Origin: Veterinaerplatzvirus T145P1
Sequence record: OZ035765.1
DNA: 45,062 nucleotides
Reading direction: 5' to 3' (one strand)
The translations under genes were made by a program, and so were the position numbers. A model generated the notes under the pieces. It was not told the origin of the DNA. It did no database searches and saw nothing but the letters and a program-made list of their open reading frames with translations. Positions 554 through 42,322 of the stretch are shown in pieces (position 1 is the stretch's first letter; each line of letters begins with the position of its first letter).

Positions 554-2119
554 ATGTCTTTAGTATGGGAAGAAATGACCATTCAGGAAAAGATGGCGGT
601 TAAGGCGATATCAGAACACAGCTTCGAGGGGTTTCTTCGCTGCTGGTTTTCAATAACGCAAGGCGAGCGATATATCCCTAACTGGCATCACAAATATCTA
701 TGCCGAATTATCGACGAGATTATTGCAGGTGAGCGCAAGGACACTATAATTAACATAGCGCCTGGTAGCGGGAAGACAGAGATCGCATCAATCCACTTCC
801 CGGCCTACTCGATGGTTAAGCTGAAGAAGGTGAGGAACCTTAACATCTCATTTGCTGACTCCCTGGTTAAGCGCAACTCTAAGCGCGTACGTGACCTTAT
901 CAAGTCTCAAGAATTTCAATCACTATGGCCTTGCAAGTTTGGCACATGCAAAGACGATGAACTTCAGGTTCTTGATGAGAGTGGCAGGGTTAGATTTGAG
1001 TCAATATCAAAGGCGGCTGGGGGTCAGATTACTGGTGCTCGAGGTGGTTATATAACAGAAACATATAGCGGAGCCGTTCTATTGGATGATTTTGACAAAC
1101 CCGCAGATATGCTTTCTCCGGTTTATCGAGCTAACAACCACGTAATGCTTAAGAACACAATTCGATCACGTCGCGCTAGCTCTGTAAAGGGAAAGGCAAC
1201 ACCAATTATCTCTATACAGCAGCGCCTGCACGTCAATGACTCAACCTGGTTCATGATGGAAGGCGGTATGGGCATCGAATTCGATTTAATTAAGATACCA
1301 GCGCTAGTTACCGATGATTACATCGATTCACTTCCTGACTGGATTAAAGATCAGTTTGCTGAGGACGTACTAAGCAGTGAATATATTGAGCGAGATGGAG
1401 TAAAGTACTACAGCTACTTTCCTAAAAAGGAATCCGTAAACGACCTGGTGGCAATGTGGGATAGTGACCCGTACACTTTCCTTAGCCAATATCAACAATG
1501 CCCAGTGGCTCTTGGCGGTAACCTGATTAACGTGGATTGGTTCCAGCGTCTTAGTGATACATTCAGGCCTCCAGCTAAGTACGATTACAGATTCATCACA
1601 TGCGATACTGCGATGACTACAAAGAGTTATAGTGACTTCTCCGTGCTTCAGTTATGGGGCTATAAGGATGCTAAGATTTACCTGATAGACCAGCGCAGGG
1701 GAAAATGGGAAGCACCAGAGTTGGAGGCTGAACTGCTGGACTTCGAGAAGAAATCAAGGGCAACCAGTCAGTCAGATGGTATCCTCAGAAGGATTATTAT
1801 CGAGAAGAAAGCGTCTGGTATCGGCCTGATTCAATCAGCTGGCAGGGTTATGCGAACACCGATAGAGCCATACGTACCGGATAACGACAAGCTGACTCGC
1901 GTAATGAGCGCATTGCCACAGATTAAGGCTGGTAATGTCGTTCTTCCAGAGTCTGCGCCGTGGCTAAACGGATTGCTTACTGAGGTTGCTGCTTTTACGG
2001 CAGATGATAGCCACAAACACGACGACCAGATTGACTGTCTAACTATGGCAATCAACCTGGTACTTAACATTGCGGACGACCCCAAAGCGCGACTAATGCG
2101 CATAGCGGGAATTAAATAG
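554..2119 (+). CDS. terminase large subunit
   Basis: 521 aa; Walker A-like NIAPGSGKTE near N-terminus, C-terminal nuclease-like acidic residues; sits before portal. Confidence 0.85.
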   Translation: MSLVWEEMTIQEKMAVKAISEHSFEGFLRCWFSITQGERYIPNWHHKYLCRIIDEIIAGERKDTIINIAPGSGKTEIASIHFPAYSMVKLKKVRNLNISFADSLVKRNSKRVRDLIKSQEFQSLWPCKFGTCKDDELQVLDESGRVRFESISKAAGGQITGARGGYITETYSGAVLLDDFDKPADMLSPVYRANNHVMLKNTIRSRRASSVKGKATPIISIQQRLHVNDSTWFMMEGGMGIEFDLIKIPALVTDDYIDSLPDWIKDQFAEDVLSSEYIERDGVKYYSYFPKKESVNDLVAMWDSDPYTFLSQYQQCPVALGGNLINVDWFQRLSDTFRPPAKYDYRFITCDTAMTTKSYSDFSVLQLWGYKDAKIYLIDQRRGKWEAPELEAELLDFEKKSRATSQSDGILRRIIIEKKASGIGLIQSAGRVMRTPIEPYVPDNDKLTRVMSALPQIKAGNVVLPESAPWLNGLLTEVAAFTADDSHKHDDQIDCLTMAINLVLNIADDPKARLMRIAGIK

Positions 2120-2159
2120 CACGAATTGCTAAACGCTAGAGCCACGGATGGCGTATAGT
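2117..2159 (+). promoter_or_regulatory. conserved promoter/operator module
   Basis: TAGCACGAATTGCTA, 22-bp spacer, TATAGT; stop codon of terminase gene is the TAG of the palindrome. Confidence 0.5.
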
Positions 2160-2190
2160 TACTTCACACCAACAAGAGGAGAAAAGGCAA

Positions 2191-2565
2191 ATGAAAAACA
2201 AATCAAAGGCTTTATATCTTGGAAACACTTATGACGAGTGTTGTGAATTCACGCCGGGAAGAGAGTACGATTGTTACGATCTTGGTGATGGATTTATTGG
2301 TCTTTGCGATGATAATGATACTGAACGTTGCATTAAAAACGGAACGTTCTACAAGTTTAAACTAATCAATGAGGAACATTTTGTAACTGAAACTGAGTGC
2401 GCATCCATGCAGCCTAGCGCCGATAAAAAACCCGAGTTTAGATATTACATCAATGGCGAAGTGGTTACTAAGGTAAAGTTCGACGATACGCTATTGTGCG
2501 TCAAGGACTTTGAATCTAGTGGGGTTGATACATCATCAATCAAGTTCGAAGTAAAATTCGAGTAA
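2191..2565 (+). CDS. hypothetical Cys-rich protein (moron-like)
   Basis: 124 aa, N-terminal cysteine cluster; own promoter module upstream (2117-2159) and terminator downstream (2586-2609). Confidence 0.5.
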   Translation: MKNKSKALYLGNTYDECCEFTPGREYDCYDLGDGFIGLCDDNDTERCIKNGTFYKFKLINEEHFVTETECASMQPSADKKPEFRYYINGEVVTKVKFDDTLLCVKDFESSGVDTSSIKFEVKFE

Positions 2566-2585
2566 TCAAAAACCGTGTGATAAAC

Positions 2586-2609
2586 TAGCCCCCACATGGG
2601 GCTTTTTTT
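2586..2609 (+). terminator. rho-independent terminator
   Basis: AGCCCC-CACAT-GGGGCT followed by T7. Confidence 0.6.
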
Positions 2610-2623
2610 ATTGGAGAAATGCA

Positions 2624-3874
2624 ATGGTAAAGACAGACAGCTACGCCAATATCTTTCTCGGCGGCAGTGATGGTAGTGAGATTTACGGGAGCTTACAGAA
2701 TCAGGAGCCTACAATCCTGGCTTCTCTTTATGCGAATAATGCGCTGGTACGTAGAATTATCGACACAATCCCTGAGACAGCATTAGCGGCAGGATTCCAC
2801 ATTGATGGTATTGATGATGAGCCAGCATTTTGGTCGCGATGGGATGACCTGGAAATGACGCAGAATATTAACGACGCCTGGGCGTGGGCGAGATTATTCG
2901 GTGGCGCCGCTATTGTGGCTATCGTTAAGGACAATAGGGCACTAACAAGTGCGGTCAGAGAAGGTGCTGAGCTTGAAACAGTTCGCGTTTACGACCGCAC
3001 GCAAGTAAAAGTACAAACTCGCGAGGAGAATCCCCGTAACGCACGTTTTGGTAAGCCACTAACCTATCGCATCACCACAAATGAGAGCGATATGTTCTAT
3101 GATGTGCACTACAGCCGAATTCACATCATTGACGGAGAGCGAATTCCTAACGTAATGCGTCGGCAAAATGATGGCTGGGGCCGTAGCGTTCTATCCAGTG
3201 ACATTCTTGACTCAATTAAGGATTACACCAACTGTGAACGACTTGCTACGCAGTTACTGAAGCGCAAGCAGCAGGCGGTGTGGAAGGCGAAAGGTCTGGC
3301 TGAGTTATGTGATGATAGCGAAGGATTTGGTGCAGCTCGATTGAGACTTGCACAGGTTGACAACAATAGCGGCGTAGGCCAGGCGATTGGTATCGATGCG
3401 GAATCTGAAGAATACAGCATTCTCAACTCCGATATTGGCGGGATCGATGCGTTCCTGGATAAGAAGTTCGATAGAATCGTTGCCCTGAGCGGTATCCATG
3501 AAATCATCCTGAAAAACAAGAACGTTGGTGGTGTGTCATCAAGCCAGAATACAGCCCTTGAGACATTCCATAAGCTAGTTGACCGCAAACGTAACTCTGA
3601 GTTGCTTCCTATTCTTGGGTTCTTAATCCCGTTCATCGTAAATGTAGAAGAGTGGTCAGTTGAGTTTTATCCTTTAGCTCAGGAATCAAGCAAGGATAAG
3701 GCTGAGATTCTGGAGAAGAACGTAAACAGCATTGCATCACTAATTGCATCTGGCGCTATGAATGCTAACGAGGCGCGTGATACACTACGAGCCATCGCAC
3801 CAGAGATTAAGATTGGTGATGGTGATATTGAAGCTCAACAACAAGAAAAATCAGAGGAGGTTGTGATTGCTTAA
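2624..3874 (+). CDS. portal protein
   Basis: 416 aa, immediately after terminase, acidic C-terminus; typical gene order. Confidence 0.75.
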   Translation: MVKTDSYANIFLGGSDGSEIYGSLQNQEPTILASLYANNALVRRIIDTIPETALAAGFHIDGIDDEPAFWSRWDDLEMTQNINDAWAWARLFGGAAIVAIVKDNRALTSAVREGAELETVRVYDRTQVKVQTREENPRNARFGKPLTYRITTNESDMFYDVHYSRIHIIDGERIPNVMRRQNDGWGRSVLSSDILDSIKDYTNCERLATQLLKRKQQAVWKAKGLAELCDDSEGFGAARLRLAQVDNNSGVGQAIGIDAESEEYSILNSDIGGIDAFLDKKFDRIVALSGIHEIILKNKNVGGVSSSQNTALETFHKLVDRKRNSELLPILGFLIPFIVNVEEWSVEFYPLAQESSKDKAEILEKNVNSIASLIASGAMNANEARDTLRAIAPEIKIGDGDIEAQQQEKSEEVVIA

Positions 3875-21254: not shown

Positions 21255-21452
21255 ATGAAGGCTTTTATAGACATAAATAAGTCACCATACAACGACGAGA
21301 AAGATCCTGAGGTAAGATTAAGGGTAAAATTTAGCACAGGAAGGGAGATAAATATAACAACTACATGTTCTGATTTAGCGAAAGCACTTATGGGTTGTAG
21401 TGAAGTTCCTGTTACTGTTTCAACGAGAAATGTTGAGGTGAAAATAAAATGA
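21255..21452 (+). CDS. hypothetical protein
   Basis: 65 aa, RBS AAGGAA. Confidence 0.4.
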   Translation: MKAFIDINKSPYNDEKDPEVRLRVKFSTGREINITTTCSDLAKALMGCSEVPVTVSTRNVEVKIK

Positions 21453-22414
21453 CTTTCAGGGTTTACACACGAGAGGAGCTAAGCAACGAGGATTACCACT
21501 CAGAGCAAGATCATATCTCCGGCAGCTCACTTGTCGAGATTATCCAAGGATCACCAGCTAAGTGGAAGTTCAAGCAACGCAATAGAGATAGCAAGGCGCT
21601 TAAGTTTGGTACCTTATCTCACTGCATGATTCTCGAACAAGATGTATTCGACAAGGAGTATTTGCGAGCAGTAGACCTTGACGCGATTGAAGGCTTAATT
21701 ACAAGCCAGGCAGGATTAGCAGCAGCACTTAAAAAAGTCGGTGTGGCTGGAACATCAGGGAAGGGCTATAGCGAGCTTGTAGAGATGATGTATCGTTCTG
21801 GCGAGGACTGGCCCATTAAGTGGCTAATTGATCAGCTGGAAAGCGCTCAAGCGCTTGTGGAGGGTAAGGAGCTAGTTAGCGCAGCAGACTATGACAAAGT
21901 TGTGGCTATGCGTGAGGTTCTTTGCAATATTCCGGCATACAATGCAATCGTGAATAGTGAGACGGCGCAGAAAGAGTTATCAATCTTCGGTGAGATTCTC
22001 GGCGTCGGCGTTAAGATTCGAATTGACCATGTTGATGTTGTTGATGGCGTCGTTCGGATCACGGATTATAAAACGACAGCCGACGCAAGCCCTGAAGGAT
22101 TTGGTAAGTCTGCATTTAATCACGGATACCTTGCAAAAATGGCGCTTCAGCGCGATCTGTTTGTGAAAGCATTTAACGAGAAGCGCAAGGTTGTTGTAGG
22201 ATTGCTGGCGCAGGAGAAGGTGGAGCCATACCTACCAATGCTGTACACACTAACCGACGAACAGCTGCGAATTGGTCGCCTTCAGTATCTTGAGGCACTT
22301 GCAACTTACAAGAAGTGCAAGGAGCTTGATATTTGGCCTGGATATTCTAACGGCATTACAGAGCAAGAGCTATTGGTTCCTGATTGGGCCATTAAACAAT
22401 ATAGAGAGATATAA
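21449..22414 (+). CDS. PD-(D/E)XK recombination exonuclease (putative)
   Basis: IDHVD...ITDYKT motif (D...D/E-x-K); located with Erf and SSB. Confidence 0.65.
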   Translation: MTFRVYTREELSNEDYHSEQDHISGSSLVEIIQGSPAKWKFKQRNRDSKALKFGTLSHCMILEQDVFDKEYLRAVDLDAIEGLITSQAGLAAALKKVGVAGTSGKGYSELVEMMYRSGEDWPIKWLIDQLESAQALVEGKELVSAADYDKVVAMREVLCNIPAYNAIVNSETAQKELSIFGEILGVGVKIRIDHVDVVDGVVRITDYKTTADASPEGFGKSAFNHGYLAKMALQRDLFVKAFNEKRKVVVGLLAQEKVEPYLPMLYTLTDEQLRIGRLQYLEALATYKKCKELDIWPGYSNGITEQELLVPDWAIKQYREI

Positions 22415-22415
22415 A

Positions 22416-22880
22416 ATGAACAAAGATTGCTGGCAGACTCCTTTAGACTTATTCAAACCGATAGATGATAAATACAAATTCAAGGTTGACGTGTGCGCAA
22501 GCCAAGAAAACGCGCTTTGTAAATATTACTGGACTGTAGATGATGACTGCTTGCAACAGGATTGGGGAGATGATGGTGGTTTCGTTTGGTGCAATCCACC
22601 ATATAGCAATCCATTACCATTTGTTGAAAAGTGCCAGCAATACGGCTATGCGGTCATGCTATTGAATCAGGATACGTCAACAAAATGGGCTAAGATAGTC
22701 TTTGAAAAAGCATCAAAGGTTATACTTTTATCAGACAGGGTTAGGTTTATAAATCCAGTAACAATGGAGGTTGGTAAGTCAAATCCTAAATGCCAGATGA
22801 TTGTAGTTTTCGACAGGCGTAGCAATTCTGGAGTTGATATACGTTGGTGTTCAATAAAAGAAATTCATAAGCAAATTTAA
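22416..22880 (+). CDS. dam: DNA N6-adenine methyltransferase (phage Dam family)
   Basis: Start moved to ATG 22416; catalytic NPPY motif (WCNPPYSN); about 154 aa. Confidence 0.8.
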   Translation: MNKDCWQTPLDLFKPIDDKYKFKVDVCASQENALCKYYWTVDDDCLQQDWGDDGGFVWCNPPYSNPLPFVEKCQQYGYAVMLLNQDTSTKWAKIVFEKASKVILLSDRVRFINPVTMEVGKSNPKCQMIVVFDRRSNSGVDIRWCSIKEIHKQI

Positions 22881-22881
22881 A

Positions 22882-22925
22882 TAGCATGAATTGCTAAAGA
22901 CAAAACTAAAGGGTGTGGGTATGAT
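22882..22925 (+). promoter_or_regulatory. conserved promoter/operator module (erf)
   Basis: TAGCATGAATTGCTA followed by a TGGGTA/TACCCA hairpin; -10 weak. Confidence 0.4.
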
Positions 22926-22954
22926 TACCCAATCAACAACGAACGAGGTTAAAG

Positions 22955-23605
22955 ATGAAAATTTCAGAATCATGCAAGTCAATTTTAAACGCTCTACACA
23001 CCGCCAAATCGCTATTTGCGAAGGCTGAAAAATCAAAACAGAACTCACACCTCAAGAACAGATACAGCACCCTTGATGATGTTCTTGCCGCTGTAGAACC
23101 AGGCCTTGAAGAATGTGGTCTTGTAATGTTTCAGAGCGTAATTGATAGCGAAGCTACTGGACTGCTGAAGGTTGAAACGAAGTTGTTCCATGCAGAGTCA
23201 GGCGAGTGGGTTAGCTTCTTAATGATTGTCCCTATCAGCAAGAATGATGCTCAAGGTTACGGATCTGCGCTTACATATGCTCGACGCTACGGAATTACAG
23301 CAGCTTTAGGTCTTAGTCAGGCAGATGACGATGGTAATCTCGCAGCTAAAGGCGTTAAAGACTTTAAACGTGAGCTTGAGAAGTGTAATAGTCTTGATGA
23401 GCTACGTAACGTATGGAAAGAGGCTAAGCAATCACTAGACGCTGCGGGATGGAAGGTTTTTGAACCTCACATTATCGAGCGCAAGGCAGAGATTGAAGCA
23501 AATGCAGCAACTGGCTTTAACCCTGCAACACCAAAGAAAGTTGCAGAAAAAAGTAGTACTGAAGAAAAGACTGAAGTAGAATCACAACAAATCGACACAT
23601 TCTAA
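22955..23605 (+). CDS. erf: Erf-family single-strand annealing protein
   Basis: NRYSTLDDVLAAV and GSALTYARRYG motifs. Confidence 0.85.
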   Translation: MKISESCKSILNALHTAKSLFAKAEKSKQNSHLKNRYSTLDDVLAAVEPGLEECGLVMFQSVIDSEATGLLKVETKLFHAESGEWVSFLMIVPISKNDAQGYGSALTYARRYGITAALGLSQADDDGNLAAKGVKDFKRELEKCNSLDELRNVWKEAKQSLDAAGWKVFEPHIIERKAEIEANAATGFNPATPKKVAEKSSTEEKTEVESQQIDTF

Positions 23606-23646
23606 ATTTAACGGGGCTGCGGCCCCAACCAATAGAGAGATAAAAC

Positions 23647-24072
23647 ATGCACGTAATTACTGGTCAGATTCGACGCGCTCCATTCACTAAAGAAGGTCAT
23701 AATGCTAATGGTACCTGGAAAATGTTTGCGGTTGATTTGAGTGAGCGATACAAAGATAAAGATGGTCAGACTCAGTATAGTAACTATCGCGCAGTCTTCT
23801 TCGCGAAAGAGTCAATGTTAGATTGGTATAATGAAGCTTTTCAAGAGGGTAAAGTTGTTAGCGTTAGCGCAGAGACTCTTTCTGTTGATGTTAGAGATAA
23901 AGATGGCAAGACTTACGTTACTGTCAACATGAACAATCCTAGACTTGAGTTTAGTCAGCGCGGTGAAGGTGGCGTGCAGCAGCAACCTAGACAACAGCAA
24001 CAAGCACAACAGCAACAACAGAATCAACAGCCAAAACAGCAAAAGCAATTCGAAGATGATATTCCTTTCTAA
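23647..24072 (+). CDS. ssb: single-stranded DNA-binding protein
   Basis: OB-fold-like N-terminus, Gln-rich linker, C-terminal acidic tail ...FEDDIPF. Confidence 0.85.
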   Translation: MHVITGQIRRAPFTKEGHNANGTWKMFAVDLSERYKDKDGQTQYSNYRAVFFAKESMLDWYNEAFQEGKVVSVSAETLSVDVRDKDGKTYVTVNMNNPRLEFSQRGEGGVQQQPRQQQQAQQQQQNQQPKQQKQFEDDIPF

Positions 24073-26771: not shown

Positions 26772-27698
26772 TTAGTCTAGCAATTCGCTTGCCTTGTATA
26801 TTCGCTTTCTTATGCCTGACTTGAAAAAATTATCATCATTTGGCATTACCACATCAAGATCGCGATCGTCAGCAACGGCGAGTAAATCAAAATCGTTGCG
26901 AGTACAAGCGATGCGTAACTTGTATTTTCTAAGCGAGTAAGCAACCATTTCCATGTTGTAGCTGGAGTAGCAAACAAGCACGCAGCGGTTGCCAGTAGCA
27001 ATGTGAACACGATAGCCGTCAATGAGATTATCGACCAGATAAGCGTACTCATCATCCTTAAAGGAACCAATAACAGCAACAGACTGGCGAGTATAATCTT
27101 TTGCAGCATAACTAACATCTCCCTCTTCATTGATAAACATTACATTACACATTTCTTCTGATATACCGTCATTATAAGCCATAAAACACGGTACTGCGTG
27201 TATCAGTTCGCCTGATTTTGTCCTGCCAACATCAAAACCAAACTCGCTATAGATGCCCTCGTATGTGCTGAGCGGAGTTGATTCCACTCTTTCCGTCCTT
27301 TCCATTATCTCTAAGCATCTTTCGTGGTCAATCTGAGCGCCCATTTTGTATGGTGATGTTCTTGAAGCTCTTTTGTTTGCTTTTGATATAACCTCTACTG
27401 GAACGAGATTCAGCCAATCACCAAGCGTATCTATTGTTTCACTATAACTCATTCCAGAACACTTCATTACCCAACCAACACCAGAATCATTTCCACACTG
27501 GTTGCATATTGCTGCGCCATTTCCCTTTTCTTGACCTAACTCATCAGTGAAGCGAAACCTATCCTTGCCAAAGCAGTAAGGGCACGGACCATGTTTCTTG
27601 CTGAGATTCTCCTTTGTCCATCCAAGATGCGATGAGTAGAACTCACTCCACATCCCTTTCATCTTGGCTATCACTTCGTTCTTATCATGTTGACTCAT
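26772..27698 (-). CDS. DNA primase (zinc-finger type, putative)
   Basis: Start moved to ATG 27698 (GGAGGT RBS); CPYC...CNQC zinc ribbon; acidic DxD-type motifs. Confidence 0.6.
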   Translation of the reverse strand: MSQHDKNEVIAKMKGMWSEFYSSHLGWTKENLSKKHGPCPYCFGKDRFRFTDELGQEKGNGAAICNQCGNDSGVGWVMKCSGMSYSETIDTLGDWLNLVPVEVISKANKRASRTSPYKMGAQIDHERCLEIMERTERVESTPLSTYEGIYSEFGFDVGRTKSGELIHAVPCFMAYNDGISEEMCNVMFINEEGDVSYAAKDYTRQSVAVIGSFKDDEYAYLVDNLIDGYRVHIATGNRCVLVCYSSYNMEMVAYSLRKYKLRIACTRNDFDLLAVADDRDLDVVMPNDDNFFKSGIRKRIYKASELLD

Positions 27699-27753
27699 AA
27701 TTACCTCCATAAACAATAAAGGCACTATACATAATGCAAAGCGCCATTGTTTA

Positions 27754-28233
27754 TCAAATCGTGCTGTTTTGCTCTTTCTTCTTTTGGTTCTCTAATTTTA
27801 TCTTGCGCCATGAACGACACTCTGGCTTAGTGGCTAATTCAGCCTCAGTGACGACTCGCAGCATATGGCGCTTTTTGCACCGAAGTGTCAGCGGTTTCCC
27901 GTTGCCGTCGAATTGCAGGTCTGGTCGGCAGAATGTAGCGCGAAAACCTTCTCCATTTCGCTTATAGTAGTTGTGAGAAAGTTGAGCCCCACGCGCAGAA
28001 ATCATACCGCGCTTAAACCATTCTTCTACAGCCTGTGGTGTTACCTTTAACTGCTTTGCGATATTCGCCTTTGTGCCGAAGAAATCAAGAACTATCTCTA
28101 GCCGCGCGCGTAGCCCGGCTCTTACTTCATCTTTTAAAACATAGTAGCCTGAAGGTCGTTTACGTTGCTTTTTGTCTTCGGTGCGGATGGTTCCGTTATT
28201 GCCGTTAATTGTTCGCTTGTCGACTGTATTCAT
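27754..28233 (-). CDS. HTH DNA-binding protein (Cro/YdaS-like), candidate early regulator
   Basis: FGTKANIAKQLKVTPQAVEEWFKRG helix-turn-helix; own canonical sigma70 promoter; palindromic operator abuts its RBS. Confidence 0.55.
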   Translation of the reverse strand: MNTVDKRTINGNNGTIRTEDKKQRKRPSGYYVLKDEVRAGLRARLEIVLDFFGTKANIAKQLKVTPQAVEEWFKRGMISARGAQLSHNYYKRNGEGFRATFCRPDLQFDGNGKPLTLRCKKRHMLRVVTEAELATKPECRSWRKIKLENQKKKEQNSTI

Positions 28234-28334: not shown

Positions 28335-30329
28335 ATGTTGCCTATCGAGAAGCTGGTTGCAAATTTCGATAAAGAAAGAATCAAACAGATTCAGAGAGAT
28401 TATCAGTTTGGCGAGATAACCCCTTACGAATTCCAGTGCGTAACATTTGATGCAATCGGGAAGGCTATTGGTAAGTATGAAGCGCCATTTATCGCTGACC
28501 TTTCAGTATCTGCGGGTAAGACAATCATTCTTGCCATGATTGGTAAGCGCATGGAGCAGCTTGGGCTTCCATATATGGTTCTCTCTCGCCAGTCAGAGAT
28601 TATCAGCCAGAACTCAGAAGAGCTTCGTAATTTCGGCATCCGTAATAGCGTCTATTGCGCTGGCCTTAACGTCAAATCAGTTTACTACCCAACTATAGTG
28701 GCCAGTGAGGGTACGGCAGCCAACGGCTTGTTTAAGGGGCTTGGTGACTATGTTCCGGCAGTTATCGCTATAGATGAGTGTCACATGGTCGATCACATGG
28801 ATATCGTGGAGGCTGAAGAGAATGAAGAAACATTTGAGCAAATGAGCACAAAGAAAGGCGATATGGTTTTTAAGGATGGCGTAAACACAGGATTGCTTGG
28901 TACTGGTCGTGCTCAGTACACGCTAATTATCACCGAGATGAAACGTCGTTGTCGTGAGAAGTACGGGCGTGAGCTTCGTATATTCGGTCTTACTGGCAGC
29001 CCGTATCGTAACAACGATCATATCGTCGTTAGCAACCCAAACATCCGTGGATTCTGGCGCAAAACAGTGATTCAGGTGCCAACAAATTATCTGGTTGATT
29101 TGGGCTTCGTGGTTCCTACTGTTTATGGTGAAGTTGGTGACCTGGGTTATGACCTTAGTGAGTTTGCGCCAGACGGAAGCGATGGCGTTAAAGACTTCAG
29201 CAAGAAAGAAATGGATGCAATGGCTGCAAAGATTCACGACAACCAATCAATGACCCAAAAGATAATGGGTTTTGTTGTGAAAATACTCGAGACTCGTAAC
29301 GCTGCATTGGTAACATGCGCTGGCAAACTCCATTGTGATGAGGCTGCTGCGGCACTACCAGATGGATACCCTTACGCCATCATCACAGACTCTACGGGAG
29401 AGAGGAAGCGCAGGGAGATTCTGGCTGATTGCCAGACAGGTAAGTACAAAATAATATTCCAGATTGGTTGTCTTACTACGGGCGTAAACCAGCCGCTGTG
29501 GGATACTAGCGTCATACTACGCAAGATTGGCAGCCTAACGCTTATGATTCAGCTTCTTGGTAGGGGGATGCGCAAACTTAAGAGATCTCATATTGATGCT
29601 GGTTTTCATAAAGAAGATCACCTTGTGCTGGATTTTGCTGGCGCACTTGATGATATGGCTGAGCTTTACTTTGACCCAATTATTGAAGAGATTCAGGCTG
29701 AGAAGTTTAAATCCTCAAGAAAAGGTGGCGATGAGGTTCGTCAGTGTCCGCAATGTGGATATGAAAATTCCCCATTCGCTCGTCGCTGTAGCAATAAGAT
29801 TGATGGCGTTAGATGCGATCACTTCTTTCAGTTCACAATTTGCGAAGACATTACCGACGCGCAAACTAAATCGGTAATTAAAAAGGGTTGTGGCGCTCGC
29901 AATGACATAGCAGCAAAGGTTTGCAGGGAATGCGGCGAGATGCTTAAAGACCCAAATGCTAACCTGACTGGCAAAATGTATCGTCGTGGTGATTACCTTC
30001 GTGTTTATGATTTTCAAGTTGGGTTAAGTAAGAATCAGACAGGCATTGTAGTTAAGTACAATATAATGGCTCATAACGGAGAGAGATTTAACGCTTGGGA
30101 GTTCTTTAATCCAGAATCAGACCATCGAGTTTGCAGTGTGCTCTGGAAGAACTTTTGCTTAGCTCATATTGATAATCGCACGGAAGCGGCACGAATTGGC
30201 AGGCTTAAAAATGCCAGAATGATTATGACTAACGTAGATAAGTTCCGTGCGCCAGTTCAGGTTACGCATCGCCGGAATGCAAAAGGAAAGGACGTGATAG
30301 CGTTTAAGAATTTTGGAGAATTATTATGA
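28335..30329 (+). CDS. SF2 DEAD/DEAH-box helicase
   Basis: Walker A VSAGKT, DECH box (AIDECHMV), C-terminal Cys-rich zinc-ribbon-like region. Confidence 0.8.
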   Translation: MLPIEKLVANFDKERIKQIQRDYQFGEITPYEFQCVTFDAIGKAIGKYEAPFIADLSVSAGKTIILAMIGKRMEQLGLPYMVLSRQSEIISQNSEELRNFGIRNSVYCAGLNVKSVYYPTIVASEGTAANGLFKGLGDYVPAVIAIDECHMVDHMDIVEAEENEETFEQMSTKKGDMVFKDGVNTGLLGTGRAQYTLIITEMKRRCREKYGRELRIFGLTGSPYRNNDHIVVSNPNIRGFWRKTVIQVPTNYLVDLGFVVPTVYGEVGDLGYDLSEFAPDGSDGVKDFSKKEMDAMAAKIHDNQSMTQKIMGFVVKILETRNAALVTCAGKLHCDEAAAALPDGYPYAIITDSTGERKRREILADCQTGKYKIIFQIGCLTTGVNQPLWDTSVILRKIGSLTLMIQLLGRGMRKLKRSHIDAGFHKEDHLVLDFAGALDDMAELYFDPIIEEIQAEKFKSSRKGGDEVRQCPQCGYENSPFARRCSNKIDGVRCDHFFQFTICEDITDAQTKSVIKKGCGARNDIAAKVCRECGEMLKDPNANLTGKMYRRGDYLRVYDFQVGLSKNQTGIVVKYNIMAHNGERFNAWEFFNPESDHRVCSVLWKNFCLAHIDNRTEAARIGRLKNARMIMTNVDKFRAPVQVTHRRNAKGKDVIAFKNFGELL

Positions 30330-30745
30330 AGATTACAGATAAAGAAGATTACATTGAGTTTTACCAGGGTCCGGTTAAGTCATGCCCTAAAGAGGATGAC
30401 GAACAAATCTTTTGCTCTGATTGGGTTAAGTATAACTACCCAGATATGGTATTTTTCCATTGCGTGAATGAGGGAAAGAAAACCATTGGTCAAGCAAGAA
30501 AAGACCAGGCTAAGGGGCTTCTAAAAGGCGTATCAGACTGTATGTTTCTTATTCCTGAATCACTTCGAGGTAAGTATCCTTTCGGAGCTATAGAGCTAAA
30601 GAGGGCTGGCAAAACTCAAGCAAGTCCAGTCAGCGAAGAACAGAAAGCATTCCTGAAAAGTGTAATGGAATCAGGCGGTTTCTCGGCAGTCGCCTACGGA
30701 CGTGAGGGTTTTCTTGCAGCATTCAAAGAAATGATTTCAAAATAG
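30326..30745 (+). CDS. VRR-NUC-like nuclease (putative)
   Basis: 139 aa; D...E-L-K type motif (DCMFLIP...AIELKR); ATGA overlap with helicase. Confidence 0.5.
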   Translation: MKITDKEDYIEFYQGPVKSCPKEDDEQIFCSDWVKYNYPDMVFFHCVNEGKKTIGQARKDQAKGLLKGVSDCMFLIPESLRGKYPFGAIELKRAGKTQASPVSEEQKAFLKSVMESGGFSAVAYGREGFLAAFKEMISK

Positions 30746-32479: not shown

Positions 32480-32562
32480 CGAGCCTAATACTAGTAGCAT
32501 CGTTACCACTGTTTAGCTTTACTATCTTATACTTTATCGTAATGAATTAAGGAACTTTTATA

Positions 32563-33693
32563 ATGGCAACCGCAAAAATCACCAACGAACAATTGCGCGA
32601 AGAGTTAGCAAATGGCATGACCAACAAGGCAATCGCAGAGAAGTACGGAATGAACATTCGCAACGTTGAATTGCGTCGCAGTAAATTAGCTAAACAAGGC
32701 GAAGGGCATGGTCGCGATGTAAGCAACTTAATCCCTCAGGGCTATGCAGTTAAAGGCGTCTCCAGCTTAATTGGTGCTGATGGCGAGATTAAGCAACAGT
32801 GGGTTAAATCAGATATCGACAAGGAGAAGCAAGAAGAGATGATGCTTCAGGCAATTCAGGCCCTAACTGATGAGTTGCCGCGTGAGAAAGCTAAAGCTTT
32901 AAGGGTTGGTTTATGGGAAGATACTTTAAGCCTTTACCCCGTGTTCGACCTCCACATTGGAGCAATGGCTCATCATGCTGAGTGTGGTGAGAACTATAGT
33001 ACTGAAATCGCTGAGAGAGTTCTTAATGATTACTTTGATTACGCGGTTGCAAAGGCCCCCAACTCCAAGAAAGCTGTATTGCTGATTGGGGGTGACTTCC
33101 TTCACTCTGACGGAATGGAAGCGGTAACACCAACCAGTCGTCATGTTCTTGATCAAGATAGCCGTTATCACAAACTTGTTTACGTAGCAGTGCGATCGAC
33201 ACGTCGAGCAATTAGCCGCATGCTTGATAAGCACGCCGAGGTTGAGGTTCAGATTATTCCAGGTAACCACGATCTCTCAGGTATGATTTGGCTTCGTGCT
33301 GCAATGGCAGCTTTCTATATGGATGAGCCTCGAGTTAATGTTGATGCGTCCCCCGCTGCGCTTCACGTAACGCAATTTGGGAAGACGCTGCTTGGTTACT
33401 GCCATGGGCACGAACTCAAAAAGCCTGATACCCGACTATCAGCACTGGCTCGTGACCATCGCAAAGCATTTGGTGAATCAGAGTATGTTTACACCCATTC
33501 AGGCCACTATCACCATCAAACTATTACGGAAGGAAATCTGGGTATTGATGAATCACACGGCCAGCTTGGAGCGAAAGATGCGTACAGTGCTAACGGAGGT
33601 TATCGCTCTTACCGACAGGCTTCGGTGATAATTTATAGTCCTGAGTTTGGTGAGATTGGACGATTTACTTGCCGCCCGGAAATGTTTAGTTAA
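32563..33693 (+). CDS. calcineurin-like metallophosphoesterase with N-terminal HTH
   Basis: Motifs D-L-H, GGDFLHSDG, GNHD, GHxH (SGHYHH); N-terminal MTNKAIAEKYGMNIRNV HTH-like segment. Confidence 0.6.
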   Translation: MATAKITNEQLREELANGMTNKAIAEKYGMNIRNVELRRSKLAKQGEGHGRDVSNLIPQGYAVKGVSSLIGADGEIKQQWVKSDIDKEKQEEMMLQAIQALTDELPREKAKALRVGLWEDTLSLYPVFDLHIGAMAHHAECGENYSTEIAERVLNDYFDYAVAKAPNSKKAVLLIGGDFLHSDGMEAVTPTSRHVLDQDSRYHKLVYVAVRSTRRAISRMLDKHAEVEVQIIPGNHDLSGMIWLRAAMAAFYMDEPRVNVDASPAALHVTQFGKTLLGYCHGHELKKPDTRLSALARDHRKAFGESEYVYTHSGHYHHQTITEGNLGIDESHGQLGAKDAYSANGGYRSYRQASVIIYSPEFGEIGRFTCRPEMFS

Positions 33694-33737
33694 TAGCACT
33701 TTTTGCCTAACGCATGCCGTAGAAATGAGGCATAATT
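33694..33737 (+). promoter_or_regulatory. conserved promoter/operator module
   Basis: TAGCACTTTTTGCCTA, CATAAT, leader TACCACATCGAAACGAG. Confidence 0.45.
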
Positions 33738-33777
33738 ACCACATCGAAACGAGATGAACTAAACGAGGAAACACAAA

Positions 33778-33954
33778 ATGACTAAAATGATTTATTGCAC
33801 CAAAAACAACTCCAAAACGCTGCCATTTACAGTTAACCAGCCGTACAATGCAGAGTACCAGGGTGATGGATATTACAAGATTTACGGTGACGATATGACG
33901 TGGATTTTAGCGCCGATTGAAGGTTCACTGGTTGAATTTATTATCGCTGACTAG
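33778..33954 (+). CDS. hypothetical protein (58 aa)
   Basis: Follows promoter module 33694-33737; terminator after the stop. Confidence 0.35.
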   Translation: MTKMIYCTKNNSKTLPFTVNQPYNAEYQGDGYYKIYGDDMTWILAPIEGSLVEFIIAD

Positions 33955-33980
33955 CACAGAAAAAACATAGCGTTACGCAC

Positions 33981-34006
33981 GGGGGGCCTTTTGGCTCCCC
34001 TTTTTT
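33981..34006 (+). terminator. rho-independent terminator before lysis cassette
   Basis: GGGGGCC-TTTT-GGCTCCCC followed by T6. Confidence 0.6.
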
Positions 34007-34085
34007 ATGCTTCTTTTCCGAGCATGGCTCCTGTATCATGTTTACACTAACTTAAACATTGACAAATAAATAAATGGAGGATCAC

Positions 34086-34301
34086 ATGAGGGAAGTAATC
34101 AACGCCGCTACAGCGTCAACCGGCGGGGCTGCGGTAACTGGCGCAGCAACTGGTCAAATGACTATAGCAATAATCAGCCTTATCGCTTTAATCATTTTTG
34201 GCGCATGGGGTGCTTACTGGAAGTTTAAAGATAGCCAGGCGATTCGGCGTGCCATTGAATCTGGCGACCTAAAGACAGCAATCAAGATAAGGAGCAAGTA
34301 A
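34086..34301 (+). CDS. holin (single TMD, pinholin-like; possible dual start at 34074/34086)
   Basis: 71 aa with one hydrophobic TMD and a charged C-terminus; directly upstream of endolysin; two in-frame ATGs 4 codons apart. Confidence 0.6.
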   Translation: MREVINAATASTGGAAVTGAATGQMTIAIISLIALIIFGAWGAYWKFKDSQAIRRAIESGDLKTAIKIRSK

Positions 34302-34787
34302 ATGAAGCAGAAGCTGCTAATTAGCGCCGCTACGGCTGCGGCAATATACATCGCAGCACCGCTTATTGAGCTCGTAGAGGGTGTGGAGAACAAGCCTTAC
34401 ATGGACATTGCCGGGGTGAAAACCGTATGCGCAGGTATTACTGGCTCTGACGTTGTTTGGGGTAAGACTTACAGTAATAGGGAGTGCCGGAACCTGCTGG
34501 AGAAGCACATCCAGATTCATGGTAAGTATGTTCAGGATGCAGTTACCTACCCAATTGCACCACAGACAAGAGCTGCATTAATCAGCTTTAGCTATAACGT
34601 TGGCGGCAATGCAATGAGGAAGTCTACCGCTGTAAGGCTAATCAACCAGGGTAAAGTTGAGAAGGGTTGCAACGCTCTCGGGATGTGGAACAAAGCAAGA
34701 GTTAACGGAAAGCTGAAGGTAGTTAAAGGCTTGGTGAATCGCAGGAATGAGGAGATTAAGTTATGTTTAAGTGGATTGCAGCGTTAG
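34302..34787 (+). CDS. SAR endolysin (T4-type lysozyme fold, putative)
   Basis: N-terminal hydrophobic signal-anchor segment followed by E...D...T lysozyme-like catalytic region. Confidence 0.8.
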   Translation: MKQKLLISAATAAAIYIAAPLIELVEGVENKPYMDIAGVKTVCAGITGSDVVWGKTYSNRECRNLLEKHIQIHGKYVQDAVTYPIAPQTRAALISFSYNVGGNAMRKSTAVRLINQGKVEKGCNALGMWNKARVNGKLKVVKGLVNRRNEEIKLCLSGLQR

Positions 34788-35152
34788 TAGTGTGCGTAGC
34801 TTTATCTGGATGTTCGGCAACTGATGCACTGACTGGATTGATTGGAAGCAAGCCGGAAGTTACAGCTCAGGTCGGGGCTGAGAACAACAAGGTTGGCGTT
34901 GGGTTAACGAATAAGGTCGATTCCAGCAGCTCCAGTGAAGCCACGGTTAAAGATTCTAAAGTTGGGTCACTTGATAGCTCAAGCGGGAAAAAGACTGCTG
35001 ACAACTCGATTAAGGCATCTACAATCACTGCCGAAAAGATTGAGATTACCAACAACGACTCATCCGCGCCTCCATGGATTGTAATGGGAGCTATGGGGTT
35101 GCTGTTTTTTGTTCCACTTACCGCAATCTTAAGACGCAAAAAAGCCTCCTAA
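34763..35152 (+). CDS. unimolecular spanin (T1 gp11-like)
   Basis: N-terminal lipoprotein signal (LSGC) and C-terminal transmembrane helix followed by RRKKAS; overlaps endolysin 3' end. Confidence 0.7.
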   Translation: MFKWIAALVVCVALSGCSATDALTGLIGSKPEVTAQVGAENNKVGVGLTNKVDSSSSSEATVKDSKVGSLDSSSGKKTADNSIKASTITAEKIEITNNDSSAPPWIVMGAMGLLFFVPLTAILRRKKAS

Positions 35153-38038: not shown

Positions 38039-38187
38039 TTTCGTGCTTTCTCTATCGCCTTGAGCATGATTTCGTGACTCTCAAGCAAATCCTCATTGAA
38101 CCAATCTCCGCAAGGCCAGCCCTTTCCGCTATACGCACTTATGACTTCCAGATCGAAATAATTTATCTCAGATGGCAGGAGCATCAT
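38023..38187 (-). CDS. hypothetical protein (54 aa)
   Basis: Translationally coupled; stop codon lies inside the operator palindrome. Confidence 0.3.
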   Translation of the reverse strand: MMLLPSEINYFDLEVISAYSGKGWPCGDWFNEDLLESHEIMLKAIEKARNSTNC

Positions 38188-38426
38188 TTCACCTCATCAA
38201 AAGTTGCAATCCCAGGAATAAACATCCCAACCTTCCAGCCTGCAATGGCAATCCATCCAGAATCGTGCTTGTGCGGTCGCTCAGCGCCATTAATCACCCA
38301 TTCGTTCGGGATTGTCTTGCCGTTAATGATTAGAGGCTCAGCGTCGTATACAGAGCCTTTAACGAATGGTGTTAAGGCTTTCTTGTCAGTGCTATTGATA
38401 ACGTTAGTGCAGATTATTTTAGTCAT
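38184..38426 (-). CDS. hypothetical protein
   Basis: 80 aa, GAGG RBS. Confidence 0.45.
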   Translation of the reverse strand: MTKIICTNVINSTDKKALTPFVKGSVYDAEPLIINGKTIPNEWVINGAERPHKHDSGWIAIAGWKVGMFIPGIATFDEVK

Positions 38427-38610
38427 TTACAACCTCGTACTCACCTTTATAAACAGCGACCTCTTCATTCACATTGTTTACAATCACTGCTAAACAAAGA
38501 GCACCCAAATATTTTACCACTTCGTACTCGCAGCCAAGCGTCAGACCATAGTCCTCACATGAACGTCCACTGCAATCTAAATCTTCGAATTTAACTAACT
38601 TAATTTTCAT
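38419..38610 (-). CDS. hypothetical protein
   Basis: 63 aa, GAGGA RBS. Confidence 0.45.
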   Translation of the reverse strand: MKIKLVKFEDLDCSGRSCEDYGLTLGCEYEVVKYLGALCLAVIVNNVNEEVAVYKGEYEVVND

Positions 38611-39321: not shown

Positions 39322-39508
39322 AAAAGTGAAATTAAGTGGTGAGTGAGTGAATGAAAGATGGATGGACTACCATACAAGTTGATTTTTACCAATCTATGGG
39401 AGCCTCACGGATATACGCGTATCCTCCGTATACTCAGTGTCGTCACAAAAGTTAGTGACCACTAACCTACGTTTTTACGCGATATATACACACGATATAC
39501 AATATAAT

Positions 39509-39574
39509 ATCTATATATATCAACCTTTTACTTTATTATTATTATTATTATTATATATATGTATACTGTGTATA
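39509..39574. repeat. AT-rich block, copy 2 with longer (ATT)n tract
   Basis: Same core as 20695-20751 with two to three extra ATT units. Confidence 0.7.
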
Positions 39575-39614
39575 CCGGTAATTGGTGAGATTATTGATAT
39601 GTTCCGCGCAGATA

Positions 39615-39632
39615 TTCTGACACCTGTCAGAA
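39615..39632. promoter_or_regulatory. perfect 8-bp-arm inverted repeat TTCTGACA-CC-TGTCAGAA
   Basis: Directly readable palindrome downstream of the AT-rich block and upstream of the 39850 gene. Confidence 0.45.
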
Positions 39633-39849
39633 ATGGATGGCATTGTAGGAATAAAAGGCACATATATAGGGAATGGCTTCAAAAATCTGTACACATCGGA
39701 TACGGCACATTTACAACCAGCAATGGAGGGGCCTCTGGAGGCAAGAAGCGTATCCATGATAAAATAGACGAAAATATACATTGACCGACACGTAAATAGA
39801 TGGCAATATAGCAGTCACTGAAACGAAGTAAAACAAACGAGGTATCAAC

Positions 39850-41992: not shown

Positions 41993-42322
41993 ATGAGTAA
42001 ATACGATCGCAAGATTATTGGCATTGATGGCACAGTAACAACAGTAGATGTTTATCGTGTTCTTGATGCGTTTGGCGTATCTGACCCAGCCACTCAGCAT
42101 GCGGTAAAGAAGATGCTTTGCACTGGCCTGCGTGGACACAAGGATTACTTAACTGACCTTAATGACTCCATTGAGTCACTACAGAAGGCTAAAGAGATTT
42201 ACTGGCAGAAGATGATTCATGAATCCGATAAAATCACTGATTCAATTTTAAATCCACCAAAAGAAGCGAGATTTAGTACTGCTAATGGTTCAGAATTCAC
42301 TTTCGGAAAGGTTAGAGTCTAA
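41993..42322 (+). CDS. hypothetical protein
   Basis: 109 aa. Confidence 0.45.
   Translation: MSKYDRKIIGIDGTVTTVDVYRVLDAFGVSDPATQHAVKKMLCTGLRGHKDYLTDLNDSIESLQKAKEIYWQKMIHESDKITDSILNPPKEARFSTANGSEFTFGKVRV

Follow-up and report, generated by a model that had tools for sequence, protein, structure and literature searches.

A helix-turn-helix metallophosphoesterase gene of T1-like phages belongs to a very common phage family and is a candidate stand-alone DNA nuclease

The stretch of DNA analysed here (the window, 45,062 nucleotides, sequence record OZ035765.1) is a complete genome of a T1-like phage of the Drexlerviridae, with about 98% identity to Veterinaerplatzvirus T145P1/JeanPiccard. The gene under study (Table 1) is already known, and is an ordinary member of a known, very common and uncharacterised phage family. 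Its 376-aa product, which has 100% identity to that of T145P1, represents the allele of the Veterinaerplatzvirus/JeanPiccard type. An earlier note, made from the sequence alone, had described an N-terminal helix-turn-helix (HTH) joined to a calcineurin-like metallophosphoesterase (MPE): the open reading frame is exactly as it was described, and both the structural model and the motifs agree with that architecture.

Table 1. Coordinates of the gene, of the segments and motifs of its product, and of the neighbouring elements
Feature	Position	Strand	Basis or remarks
Ribosome-binding site AAGGA, 9 nt 5' of the ATG	32549..32553	+	Read from the sequence
CDS, 376-aa HTH-metallophosphoesterase protein	32563..33693	+	ATG start; ortholog of phage T1 gp16; PHROG 704
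Three-helix HTH, residues 8-44 (helices 8-16, 21-28, 32-44), LuxR/GerE, sigma-70 region 4 or resolvase type	32584..32694	+	
Conserved beta-hairpin 61-85 (near-invariant G74, W80) and helix 87-103, joining the HTH to the core	32743..32871	+	AF2 model; 135-sequence alignment
Binuclear metallophosphoesterase core, residues 118-376, nuclease-type, without capping domain	32914..33690	+	
Motif I, D129-L-H131, metal ligands	32947..32955	+	Invariant in 135 homologs
Motif II, G177-D178-F-L-H181-S-D183-G184	33091..33114	+	D178 metal ligand, invariant; H181 99%, D183 92%
Family-specific segment T189-P-x-S-x-H-x-L-D197-x-D199-x-R201, between motifs II and III	33127..33165	+	T189 99%, L196 93%, D197 97%, D199 92%, R201 95%
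Motif III, G234-N235-H236-D237	33262..33273	+	N235 and H236 invariant
Motif IV, H281-G-H283	33403..33411	+	H281 invariant, G282 98%
Motif V, G314-H315-Y-H317-H318	33502..33516	+	G314 99%, H315 96%, H317 99%
DUF7244 (SH3-like) ORF, 58 aa, last gene of the transcription unit of the metallophosphoesterase gene	33778..33954	+	Pfam PF23896, E=2.6e-29; context, not part of the enzyme
Intrinsic terminator GGGGGGCC-TTTT-GGCTCCCC followed by a T-run	33981..34006	+	Terminator scan: 8-bp stem, 7 GC pairs

The transcription unit contains, in this order, an SNF2-type helicase gene (28335-30329), a VRR-NUC gene (30326-30745), small ORFs, the MPE gene, the DUF7244 gene and the terminator, which divides the helicase/VRR-NUC/MPE unit from the lysis cassette; phage CEB_EC3a has a terminator annotated at the same place. 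The genes for RecE (exonuclease VIII), Erf and SSB, which the earlier note had also placed in this genome, lie at 21449-24072. A DUF7244 (SH3-like) gene has been described for the Drexlerviridae, 508 of 522 of which carry an exonuclease-holin-endolysin-spanin module, which puts the exonuclease gene among the core genes, at a constant position; in the phages that lack the SH3 gene, it is most often adjoined by genes for a polynucleotide kinase and a dNMP kinase (PMC13164509). The latter neighbourhood is likewise found in Yersinia phage 636. More generally, homologs are located at the early/late boundary, by lysis or packaging genes, in Drexlerviridae, Dhillonvirus, Yersinia phage 636, Rhizobium phage RHEph19 and Vibrio phage 217E38-1. 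A conserved partner gene was considered and rejected: the neighbours called 'DNA-binding protein' in Jerseyvirus ZCSE9 and Vibrio phage 217E38-1 are an Ant-like anti-repressor and an HNH endonuclease, and they are not conserved.

The protein matches PHROG 704 ("DNA repair exonuclease") over its full length (E=6.2e-149; residues 4-375 cover positions 2-389 of the 390 in the profile). Its homologs occur in 2048 phage records, that is, in more than 2,000 phage genomes, and fall into 4,682 representative clusters with an E threshold of 0.001, or 1,003 with a threshold of 1e-30. The T1 ortholog is gp16 (ST16, 377 aa), similar in length and in genomic position, upstream of the lysis cassette, and the TLS counterpart is gp66; a cluster representative (P0057) from Tunavirus, the genus of T1, has about 63% identity to the 376-aa protein. 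T1 gp16, TLS gp66 and PHROG 704 share one HTH-hairpin-MPE layout across 135 representatives, with no substantive difference from the protein studied here. Orthology with gp16 and full-length membership of PHROG 704, both of which the earlier note missed, thus mean that the fusion of an HTH to an MPE is family-wide, already on record and not peculiar to this genome. Public labels for the family ('DNA repair exonuclease', 'proof-reading exonuclease', 'phosphoesterase') are all similarity-based, and in the literature we found no experiment on any member of the gp16/PHROG 704 family.

Conservation was assessed on the alignment of these 135 representatives, which have 29 to 71% identity to the query. 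The metal ligands D129, H131, D178, N235, H236 and H281 are invariant in all 135, and H315 and H317 are conserved at 96 to 99%. All five motifs of the superfamily (DxH, GD, GNH(D/E), H and GHxH), which had been read from the sequence in the earlier note, are present, and the model has the metallophosphoesterase beta-sandwich fold. Ahead of the core, the family carries an N-terminal extension of 130 residues (median), in which a flexible linker (residues 45-60 in our protein) separates the HTH from the hairpin/helix module. The Pfam Metallophos model (PF00149) narrowly misses the protein (20.9 bits, for a cut-off of 21.5) and gives 18.8 bits for T1 gp16; the family is too divergent for this model, and it is by motifs and fold that the protein is placed in the superfamily. 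A sequence search of the PDB with the single protein gave no match, and the family profile searched against PDB sequences reached GerE (E=0.028) and Thermotoga Mre11/SbcD (E=0.036, aligned over motifs I-II).

As to the HTH, the Pfam GerE model stays below threshold (E=0.044, 13.8 bits for a cut-off of 23.5), but the domain is confirmed structurally and can be superposed on the effector domains of NarL/GerE; since resolvase, Tc3 and sigma-4 HTH domains match about as well as GerE, the assignment stops at the general HTH class. The question arises as to whether the protein could be a transcription factor or an RNA-polymerase-binding regulator, its HTH controlling the lysis/late switch or host shut-off and its MPE serving as a sensor or accessory. 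An HTH of the LuxR/sigma-70 region 4 class would suit such a role, as would the position at the early/late boundary, by lysis or packaging genes, in unrelated lineages. Moreover, for an architectural analogue, phage T5 A1, both binding to host RNA polymerase and a requirement in pre-early gene shut-off have been reported (PMC8541194). However, the metal ligands are the most conserved residues of the family whereas the HTH sequence is variable, which indicates that selection acts on catalysis, and the strong terminator parts the gene from the lysis cassette, such that their adjacency may reflect module order only. The match to PHROG 836 ('late transcriptional activator') is weak and, at E 0.05, not significant, and the genome has a separate, dedicated regulator (PHROG 2856) at 27754-28233. 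We therefore find a regulatory function very unlikely.

Three catalytic functions had been proposed from the sequence, namely a nuclease, a protein phosphatase and a phosphodiesterase acting on nucleotide second messengers, together with a comparison to SbcD/Mre11 and lambda phosphatase by profile and structure. In that comparison the nuclease-type MPEs come nearest. The top structural neighbours of the model are the PolD DP1 exonuclease, SbcD and Mre11, and in hhalign comparisons the catalytic domain of the family gives a probability of 49% with T4 gp47 (E 1.7e-4), although only 2.3% with E. coli SbcD. Motif II, GDFLHS, is of the Mre11 type (GDLLHS in Thermotoga Mre11), as opposed to the phosphatase-type GDxxDRG. 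The histidine of this motif, H181, corresponds by its place in the motif to His81 of Pseudomonas putida MPE, which is required for DNA cleavage but dispensable for bis-pNPP hydrolysis (PMC7826289). Fold and profile comparisons thus group the catalytic domain with PolD DP1, SbcD/Mre11 and T4 gp47, and of the three proposed functions the nuclease is the best supported, with the caveat that every sequence link to a characterised nuclease is weak (probability of at most 49%). We also observed that the family-specific segment near the active site is acidic (D183, D197, D199), which is atypical of a DNA-binding surface.

The phosphatase proposal fares poorly in the same comparison. In lambda, too, the gene for a metallophosphoesterase of the same superfamily, the protein Ser/Thr/Tyr phosphatase NinI (lambda-PP), immediately precedes Q and the lysis cassette, but hhalign gives only 0.8% between NinI and the catalytic domain. 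The combination that marks PPP/lambda phosphatases, GDxHG, GDxxDRG and GNHE motifs with profile similarity, is not found in the protein. Fold and profile comparisons argue strongly against a phosphatase of this kind, which we consider barely credible.

With PolD DP1 among the closest structural neighbours, a 3'-5' proofreading exonuclease may also be envisaged. Neither of the close relatives T1 and CEB_EC3a has an annotated phage DNA polymerase, and the window contains no polymerase or DP2-like ORF; as T1-like phages lack a DNA polymerase gene, a proofreader would have to help the host replicase. Host Pol III already has a proofreader, DnaQ. DP1 itself acts in a DP1-DP2 complex and has an OB fold, and both the OB fold and the DP2 partner are absent here; the two proteins have 12% identity, the MPE part alone can be aligned, and the margin of DP1 over SbcD/Mre11 is small (16.2 vs 14.8). 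The name 'proof-reading exonuclease' found in databases derives from the same structural similarity and is not independent evidence. Such an activity is, in our opinion, highly doubtful.

The remaining proposal of the earlier note, a phosphodiesterase, would act on nucleotides, on second messengers such as cyclic mono-, di- or oligonucleotides, or on other small phosphodiesters, in nucleotide metabolism or anti-defence, with the HTH ensuring regulation or localisation. It sits poorly with an N-terminal HTH found throughout the family, with the nuclease-associated H181, and with best structural and profile matches that are nucleases. Anti-defence genes are usually patchy in distribution. Ours is a core gene, with the fixed position given above for 508 of 522 Drexlerviridae (PMC13164509), and is present in more than 2,000 phages; the NCBIfam model for a PADLOC-type anti-phage phosphoesterase gives 12.5 bits, for a cut-off of 420. 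A phosphodiesterase of this type therefore appears quite improbable. Calcineurin-like proteins described in papers on Metis and on bacterial NLRs were set aside as unrelated components of host defence, and a paper on STAND/Avs systems makes no mention of the protein studied here.

If the catalytic core resembles that of Mre11, SbcD and T4 gp47, with which it shares the MPE nuclease domain and the motif II histidine, the rest of the system differs. Mre11 and SbcD carry a capping domain, whereas the model of the 376-aa protein stops with the catalytic core at residue 376, and only 184 to 189 residues align to the SbcD and Mre11 chains (319 to 362 residues). Conversely, the N-terminal HTH and hairpin module is undetected by Pfam in SbcD-type models, and no SbcD or Mre11 model was among the NCBIfam matches of the protein at E up to 10. 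Mre11, SbcD and gp47 work with an ATPase partner, Rad50, SbcC or gp46, and none is encoded in the whole genome. The earlier statement that no SbcC-like partner lies nearby can thus be extended genome-wide: each ORF above 300 aa has another assignment (terminase, portal, protease, capsid, tape measure, tail tip J, tail fibre, helicase, primase, RecE or membrane protein). Rad50, SbcC or gp46 is likewise not annotated in T1, nor in the part of CEB_EC3a that was examined. Another nuclease with an MPE domain, P. putida MPE/PdeM, a ligase-associated ssDNA endonuclease, has a structural score much below those of Mre11 or DP1 and has no HTH; the NCBIfam PdeM model (TIGR04123) gives 19.7 bits for a cut-off of 150, and the window contains no ligase or Lhr-type gene, hence no Lhr-LigD-type ligase/helicase operon. 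A viral compendium paper was discarded as a lead, as it covers Mre11-Rad50 fusions only.

Another solo phage protein offers a parallel. T5 A1 (PHROG 1745, 'DNA transfer protein') has a C-terminal MPE with invariant ligands (D304, H306, D340, N396, H397, H476, H501 and H503 in alignment A3) and requires no Rad50 partner, and many A1 homologs have an N-terminal HTH (Pfam HTH_23, HTH_38, HTH_7), so that the architecture of an HTH with a solo C-terminal MPE is common to both families. In vivo, A1 is reported to be necessary and sufficient for the degradation of host DNA, and the same kinds of structural neighbours, double-strand break repair nucleases and polymerase proofreading subunits, are named by its authors (bioRxiv 10.64898/2026.04.02.716235). 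Degradation of host DNA is a trait of both groups of phages (PMC11447400). The two proteins differ in that A1 is longer (556 aa, with an N-terminal region of about 290 residues) and is expressed pre-early in T5, and A1-type genes belong to other phage lineages, namely T5-like phages, phiCbK-like phages and some podophages. The evidence for A1 as a putative nuclease is from in vivo work.

Could gp16 and A1 be related by descent? By eye, they seemed to share the series of motifs (II and III being 57 residues apart in either protein), a 'NHDxxxxxWL' stretch and a C-terminal 'ITY' strand, and cross-family HMM scores exceed those of shuffled controls. Comparisons by hhalign gave 41% with trimmed profiles and 27% with A1 as a single sequence, motifs I-II being out of register, and with full profiles the HTH alone was aligned (21%). 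Real controls were at the same level or higher: 49% for gp16 with T4 gp47, and 42% for A1 with SbcD. The 376-aa protein does not match PHROG 1745, one A1 homolog matches PHROG 704 weakly (E 0.15, too little for kinship), and Foldseek against a viral structure library, many targets of which are nameless, returned no identifiable T5 A1 entry. As the similarity does not exceed that of real controls, specific kinship is unsupported; we reject a specific homology and treat A1 as an analogue, not as a demonstrated relative.

Taking these elements together, we favour, with moderate confidence, the view that this gene of the replication/recombination operon encodes a Mn-dependent DNA nuclease that works alone and is tethered by its HTH; the metal, DNA as the substrate and the biological role are what we infer. 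The nuclease-type core, with its full set of metal ligands and H181, would bind most likely two Mn2+ ions, and the N-terminal HTH, via the linker and the hairpin/helix module, would bring it to DNA. Unlike Mre11/SbcD, such a nuclease would work without capping domain or Rad50/SbcC ATPase. Transcription at the end of the early/middle helicase/VRR-NUC operon suggests that it acts on DNA during replication.

For this putative nuclease, two roles have about the same plausibility. It may degrade the chromosome of the host so that nucleotides can be salvaged, in the manner of T4 gp46/47 and T5 A1, or it may serve the RecE/Erf/SSB recombination-dependent replication from which T1 concatemers arise, by processing ends, hairpins or branched intermediates. 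Concerning the first role, infection by T1 or TLS entails breakdown of the host genome and reuse of its nucleotides, and the responsible gene has yet to be assigned (PMC11447400). Gene order by itself gives only an ambiguous assignment of the classical T1 gene 2.5, or of the host-chromosome-degradation mutants, to gp16. A bolder proposal, tentative and rather unlikely in our judgement, is that the gp16-type HTH-MPE is the enzyme with which T1-like phages destroy the host chromosome and recycle its nucleotides. It would then be an Mre11-like DNase that is guided by its HTH, needs no Rad50 and corresponds in function to T5 A1. Against a host DNase, the sparing of phage DNA is left unexplained. 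RecE and VRR-NUC are equally available candidates for host DNA breakdown.

The gp16 family is very large, core in T1-like phages and frequent in other siphophages, yet uncharacterised as far as the literature shows; its size, together with the reported role of T5 A1 in host DNA degradation, makes the gene a concrete and cheaply testable candidate. If it is a host DNase, T1 gp16 mutants would be expected to show raised transduction, like classical mutants in host-chromosome degradation, and to escape defences that sense DNA breakdown products, and fusion to a DNA-binding domain could free Mre11-type nucleases from the need for Rad50. Solo HTH-MPE proteins would then represent a widespread means by which phages demolish the host genome, with consequences for generalized transduction and for such defences.

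The gene for the helix-turn-helix (HTH)-metallophosphoesterase (MPE) protein matches PHROG 704 ('DNA repair exonuclease') over its full length (E = 6e-149), has tblastn homologs in 2,048 phage records, and has orthologs in T1 (ST16/gp16) and TLS (gp66); it is therefore real and strongly conserved, and it is already named by similarity in databases. Hosts and groups of these homologs, hereafter the gp16 family, include coliphages, Klebsiella Webervirus, Salmonella Jerseyvirus, Dhillonvirus, and Vibrio, Rhizobium and Flavobacterium phages. Of 1.84 billion cluster representatives searched exhaustively, 4,682 matched at E <= 0.001 and 1,003 at E <= 1e-30, nearly all family representatives among the matches listed being 370 to 420 aa long. 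Public records use the names 'DNA repair exonuclease', 'proof-reading exonuclease', 'phosphoesterase' and 'winged HTH protein', every one of which is a prediction, and a literature search for experiments on any member found none. Within this very large phage family, which is annotated already and whose function is predicted only, the gene is an ordinary member. The window comprises the whole genome of a T1-like siphophage. The surroundings of the gene are 98.4% identical to Veterinaerplatzvirus T145P1 and 97.7% to Escherichia phage JeanPiccard, the protein is the T145P1 product at 100% identity, and gene order is shared with the annotated relative vB_EcoS_CEB_EC3a (Drexlerviridae, Braunvirinae).

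The observation made in the earlier note is confirmed: the ORF is present, and all the MPE motifs it listed were found (D129-L-H131; G177-D178-F-L-H181-S-D183-G184; G234-N235-H236-D237; H281-G-H283; G314-H315-Y-H317-H318). Among 135 aligned representatives (29 to 71% identity to the query), D129, H131, D178, N235, H236 and H281 are invariant, and H181, H315 and H317 are kept in 96 to 99%. The Pfam Metallophos score narrowly misses its threshold (20.9 versus 21.5 bits), so that the superfamily assignment rests on motifs and structure. An alignment-based AlphaFold2 model is confident (pLDDT 92.9, pTM 0.85), and its residues 118-376 superpose on solved MPEs. The model also bears out the proposed N-terminal HTH, which is likened to sigma factor region 4 and Tc3 transposase, among others; weak GerE profile matches (E 0.03-0.04) agree with it. 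Between HTH and core lies a linker of lower model confidence (residues 45-60), then a conserved beta-hairpin (61-85) and a helix (87-103). Since essentially all representatives carry an N-terminal extension (median 130 residues ahead of the core), the fusion is a family-wide property. Two further elements, 91 to 99% conserved in the 135 homologs, are not accounted for by generic MPE motifs: G74 and W80, near-invariant in the hairpin (window 32782-32802), and a family-specific segment between motifs II and III, T189-P-x-S-x-H-x-L-D197-x-D199-x-R201 (window 33127-33165).

The question arises as to which MPE class the protein belongs to, a nuclease, a protein phosphatase and a phosphodiesterase having been offered earlier. 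In structure comparisons, additional Mre11 and SbcD structures scored 12.6 to 13.3, and PPP-type and lambda-phosphatase-like protein phosphatases only 8.7 to 9.4. Scores fall gently, and small-molecule enzymes followed closely (MJ0936 14.1, LpxH 13.4, YfcE 12.9, Rv0805 12.5); the modeled fold by itself leaves the substrate undecided. Three other lines favor DNA. Searched against PDB sequences, the family profile matched in its catalytic domain only Thermotoga Mre11/SbcD, through motifs I-II, 'GDFLHS' aligning on 'GDLLHS'. In a P. putida MPE, His81 (motif II Asp +3) and His113 of the GNH motif are essential for DNA cleavage and not for bis-pNPP hydrolysis (PMC7826289); the equivalent positions in the gp16 family are H181 (99%) and H236 (100%). 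Finally, hhalign aligned the catalytic domain with T4 gp47 at 49% probability (E 1.7e-4, 195 columns), against 0.8% for the lambda NinI phosphatase. Motifs, structure comparison and this last value effectively rule out a lambda-type protein phosphatase. A nucleotide or second-messenger phosphodiesterase, although compatible with the fold, is unlikely, as it fits poorly with the conserved DNA-binding domain, the nuclease-type histidine and the fixed core gene status. The earlier interpretation is thus partly supported, the nuclease being the favored option. Among predicted viral structures, Foldseek returned many phage proteins of 400-500 aa to which the automatic names 'DNA polymerase II small subunit' (DP1-like) or 'metallophosphatase' had been given.

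Even so, the protein falls outside the Mre11/SbcD family proper: unlike that family it lacks a capping domain, it has no match to any curated SbcD or Mre11 model, and a Rad50/SbcC-like ATPase is neither encoded in the window nor annotated in T1. The earlier remark that no SbcC-like partner lies nearby extends to the entire window, whose large ORFs are all assigned elsewhere (TerS, TerL, portal, protease, capsid, tape measure, tail tip J, tail fibre, two helicases, primase, RecE, Erf, SSB, membrane protein).

T5 provides a comparison. According to a 2026 preprint, host DNA degradation in vivo requires its pre-early A1 protein, a 'predicted metallo-phosphatase', which also suffices for it; A1 was there likened to double-strand-break-repair nucleases and polymerase proofreading subunits (10.64898/2026.04.02.716235), the same two groups as the structural neighbors of the HTH-MPE protein. 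Pfam finds no domain in A1 itself; in its family the MPE ligands are invariant in the C-terminal half (D304, H306, D340, N396, H397, H476, H501, H503), and many homologs of 530 aa have an HTH_23, HTH_38 or HTH_7 domain at the N-terminus, so that both families share an HTH-plus-solo-MPE architecture. Genes of the A1 type were found in 1,135 phage records, from lineages other than those of the gp16 family (T5-like, phiCbK-like, some podophages). Cross-family HMM scores exceed shuffled controls, one A1 homolog weakly matches PHROG 704, and a trimmed profile-profile alignment reached 41% probability, with motifs III-V and the C-terminal strand in register and motifs I-II out. However, controls gave 49% (gp16 family versus T4 gp47) and 42% (A1 family versus E. 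coli SbcD), so that the specificity was lost and a sister-family relationship is not supported. It is defensible that both belong to the nuclease branch of the superfamily, with a common architecture.

Features around the HTH-MPE gene, and T5 A1 (window positions unless stated)
Feature	Position	Strand	Remark
RecE, Erf, SSB	21449-24072		
Primase and regulator	26772-28233		
SNF2-type helicase	28335-30329	+	start of transcription unit
VRR-NUC nuclease	30326-30745	+	Pfam E 6.7e-8
Several small ORFs	between VRR-NUC and HTH-MPE gene	+	no assigned function
Ribosome-binding site AAGGA	9 nt 5' of HTH-MPE ATG	+	sequence
HTH-MPE ORF	32563-33693	+	ATG start, 376 codons (376 aa)
DUF7244/SH3-like ORF, 58 aa	33778-33954	+	PF23896, E = 2.6e-29; 3' of HTH-MPE gene
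Strong intrinsic terminator	33981-34006 (also given as 33981-34000)	+	just 5' of holin gene
Holin, SAR-endolysin, spanin genes	34074-35152		after terminator
T5 A1 (PHROG 1745, 'DNA transfer protein')	1706-3376 of T5 locus L009	-	

The gene lies near the end of a rightward transcription unit. The 4-nt ATGA overlap of helicase stop and VRR-NUC start suggests that these two genes are translationally coupled. The annotations of two close relatives, T1 and CEB_EC3a, list no phage DNA polymerase. Both the sigma-4/LuxR-like HTH and the location at the early/late boundary hint at a primarily regulatory protein, and with the reported binding of A1 to RNA polymerase (PMC8541194) the HTH may still have a part in regulation; however, conservation is highest at the catalytic residues, and the terminator stands between the gene and the lysis cassette. 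The DUF7244/SH3 gene, described in a 2026 paper as a shell component near the Drexlerviridae lysis module in 188 of 522 genomes (PMC13164509), here shares the transcription unit of the replication operon and is set apart from the lysis genes. Where it is missing, polynucleotide kinase and dNMP kinase genes are most often 3' of the exonuclease gene (PMC13164509), an adjacency also present in Yersinia phage 636.

Lysis genes adjoin the homolog in Dhillonvirus Sponge, Rhizobium phage RHEph19 and Vibrio phage 217E38-1; in these, in Yersinia phage 636 and in the window (32563-35152), which represent several unrelated lineages, it lies within a few genes of endolysin/holin, at the packaging/late module boundary. 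In lambda, an MPE gene of another class occupies a comparable position (ninI-Q-S-R-Rz). Such proximity may be functional or mere module order. In Jerseyvirus the homolog sits in an island among tail genes, and no conserved protein partner emerged from the compared neighborhoods. A small PHROG 2452 protein (window 41993-42322, +), with a further match to 'ATPase' PHROG 17613 in its C-terminal part, has a homolog in that island (L003 7681-7908), two genes from the phosphoesterase gene. Two GTG-start ORFs with no PHROG match at E <= 1e-5 (38074-38493, +, 139 aa; 39437-39784, +, 115 aa) may be non-genes or lineage-specific early genes.

The best-supported reading is that of a stand-alone DNA nuclease, probably Mn-dependent, which the HTH would tether to DNA and which would act in the replication phase. 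It could plausibly process ends or secondary structures for RecE/Erf/SSB-dependent recombination and replication, or, also plausibly, take part in host chromosome breakdown; the Mre11/Rad50-like T4 gp46/47 is annotated as used in both recombination and host DNA degradation. T1 and TLS break down the host genome and reuse its nucleotides, and the authors of the 2024 TLS study could not identify the gene behind this degradation, which they listed as an open question (PMC11447400). That the HTH-MPE protein degrades the host chromosome in T1-like phages is, in our estimate, rather unlikely. The residual interest of the gene is that it offers a cheaply testable hypothesis for host chromosome degradation by these phages.
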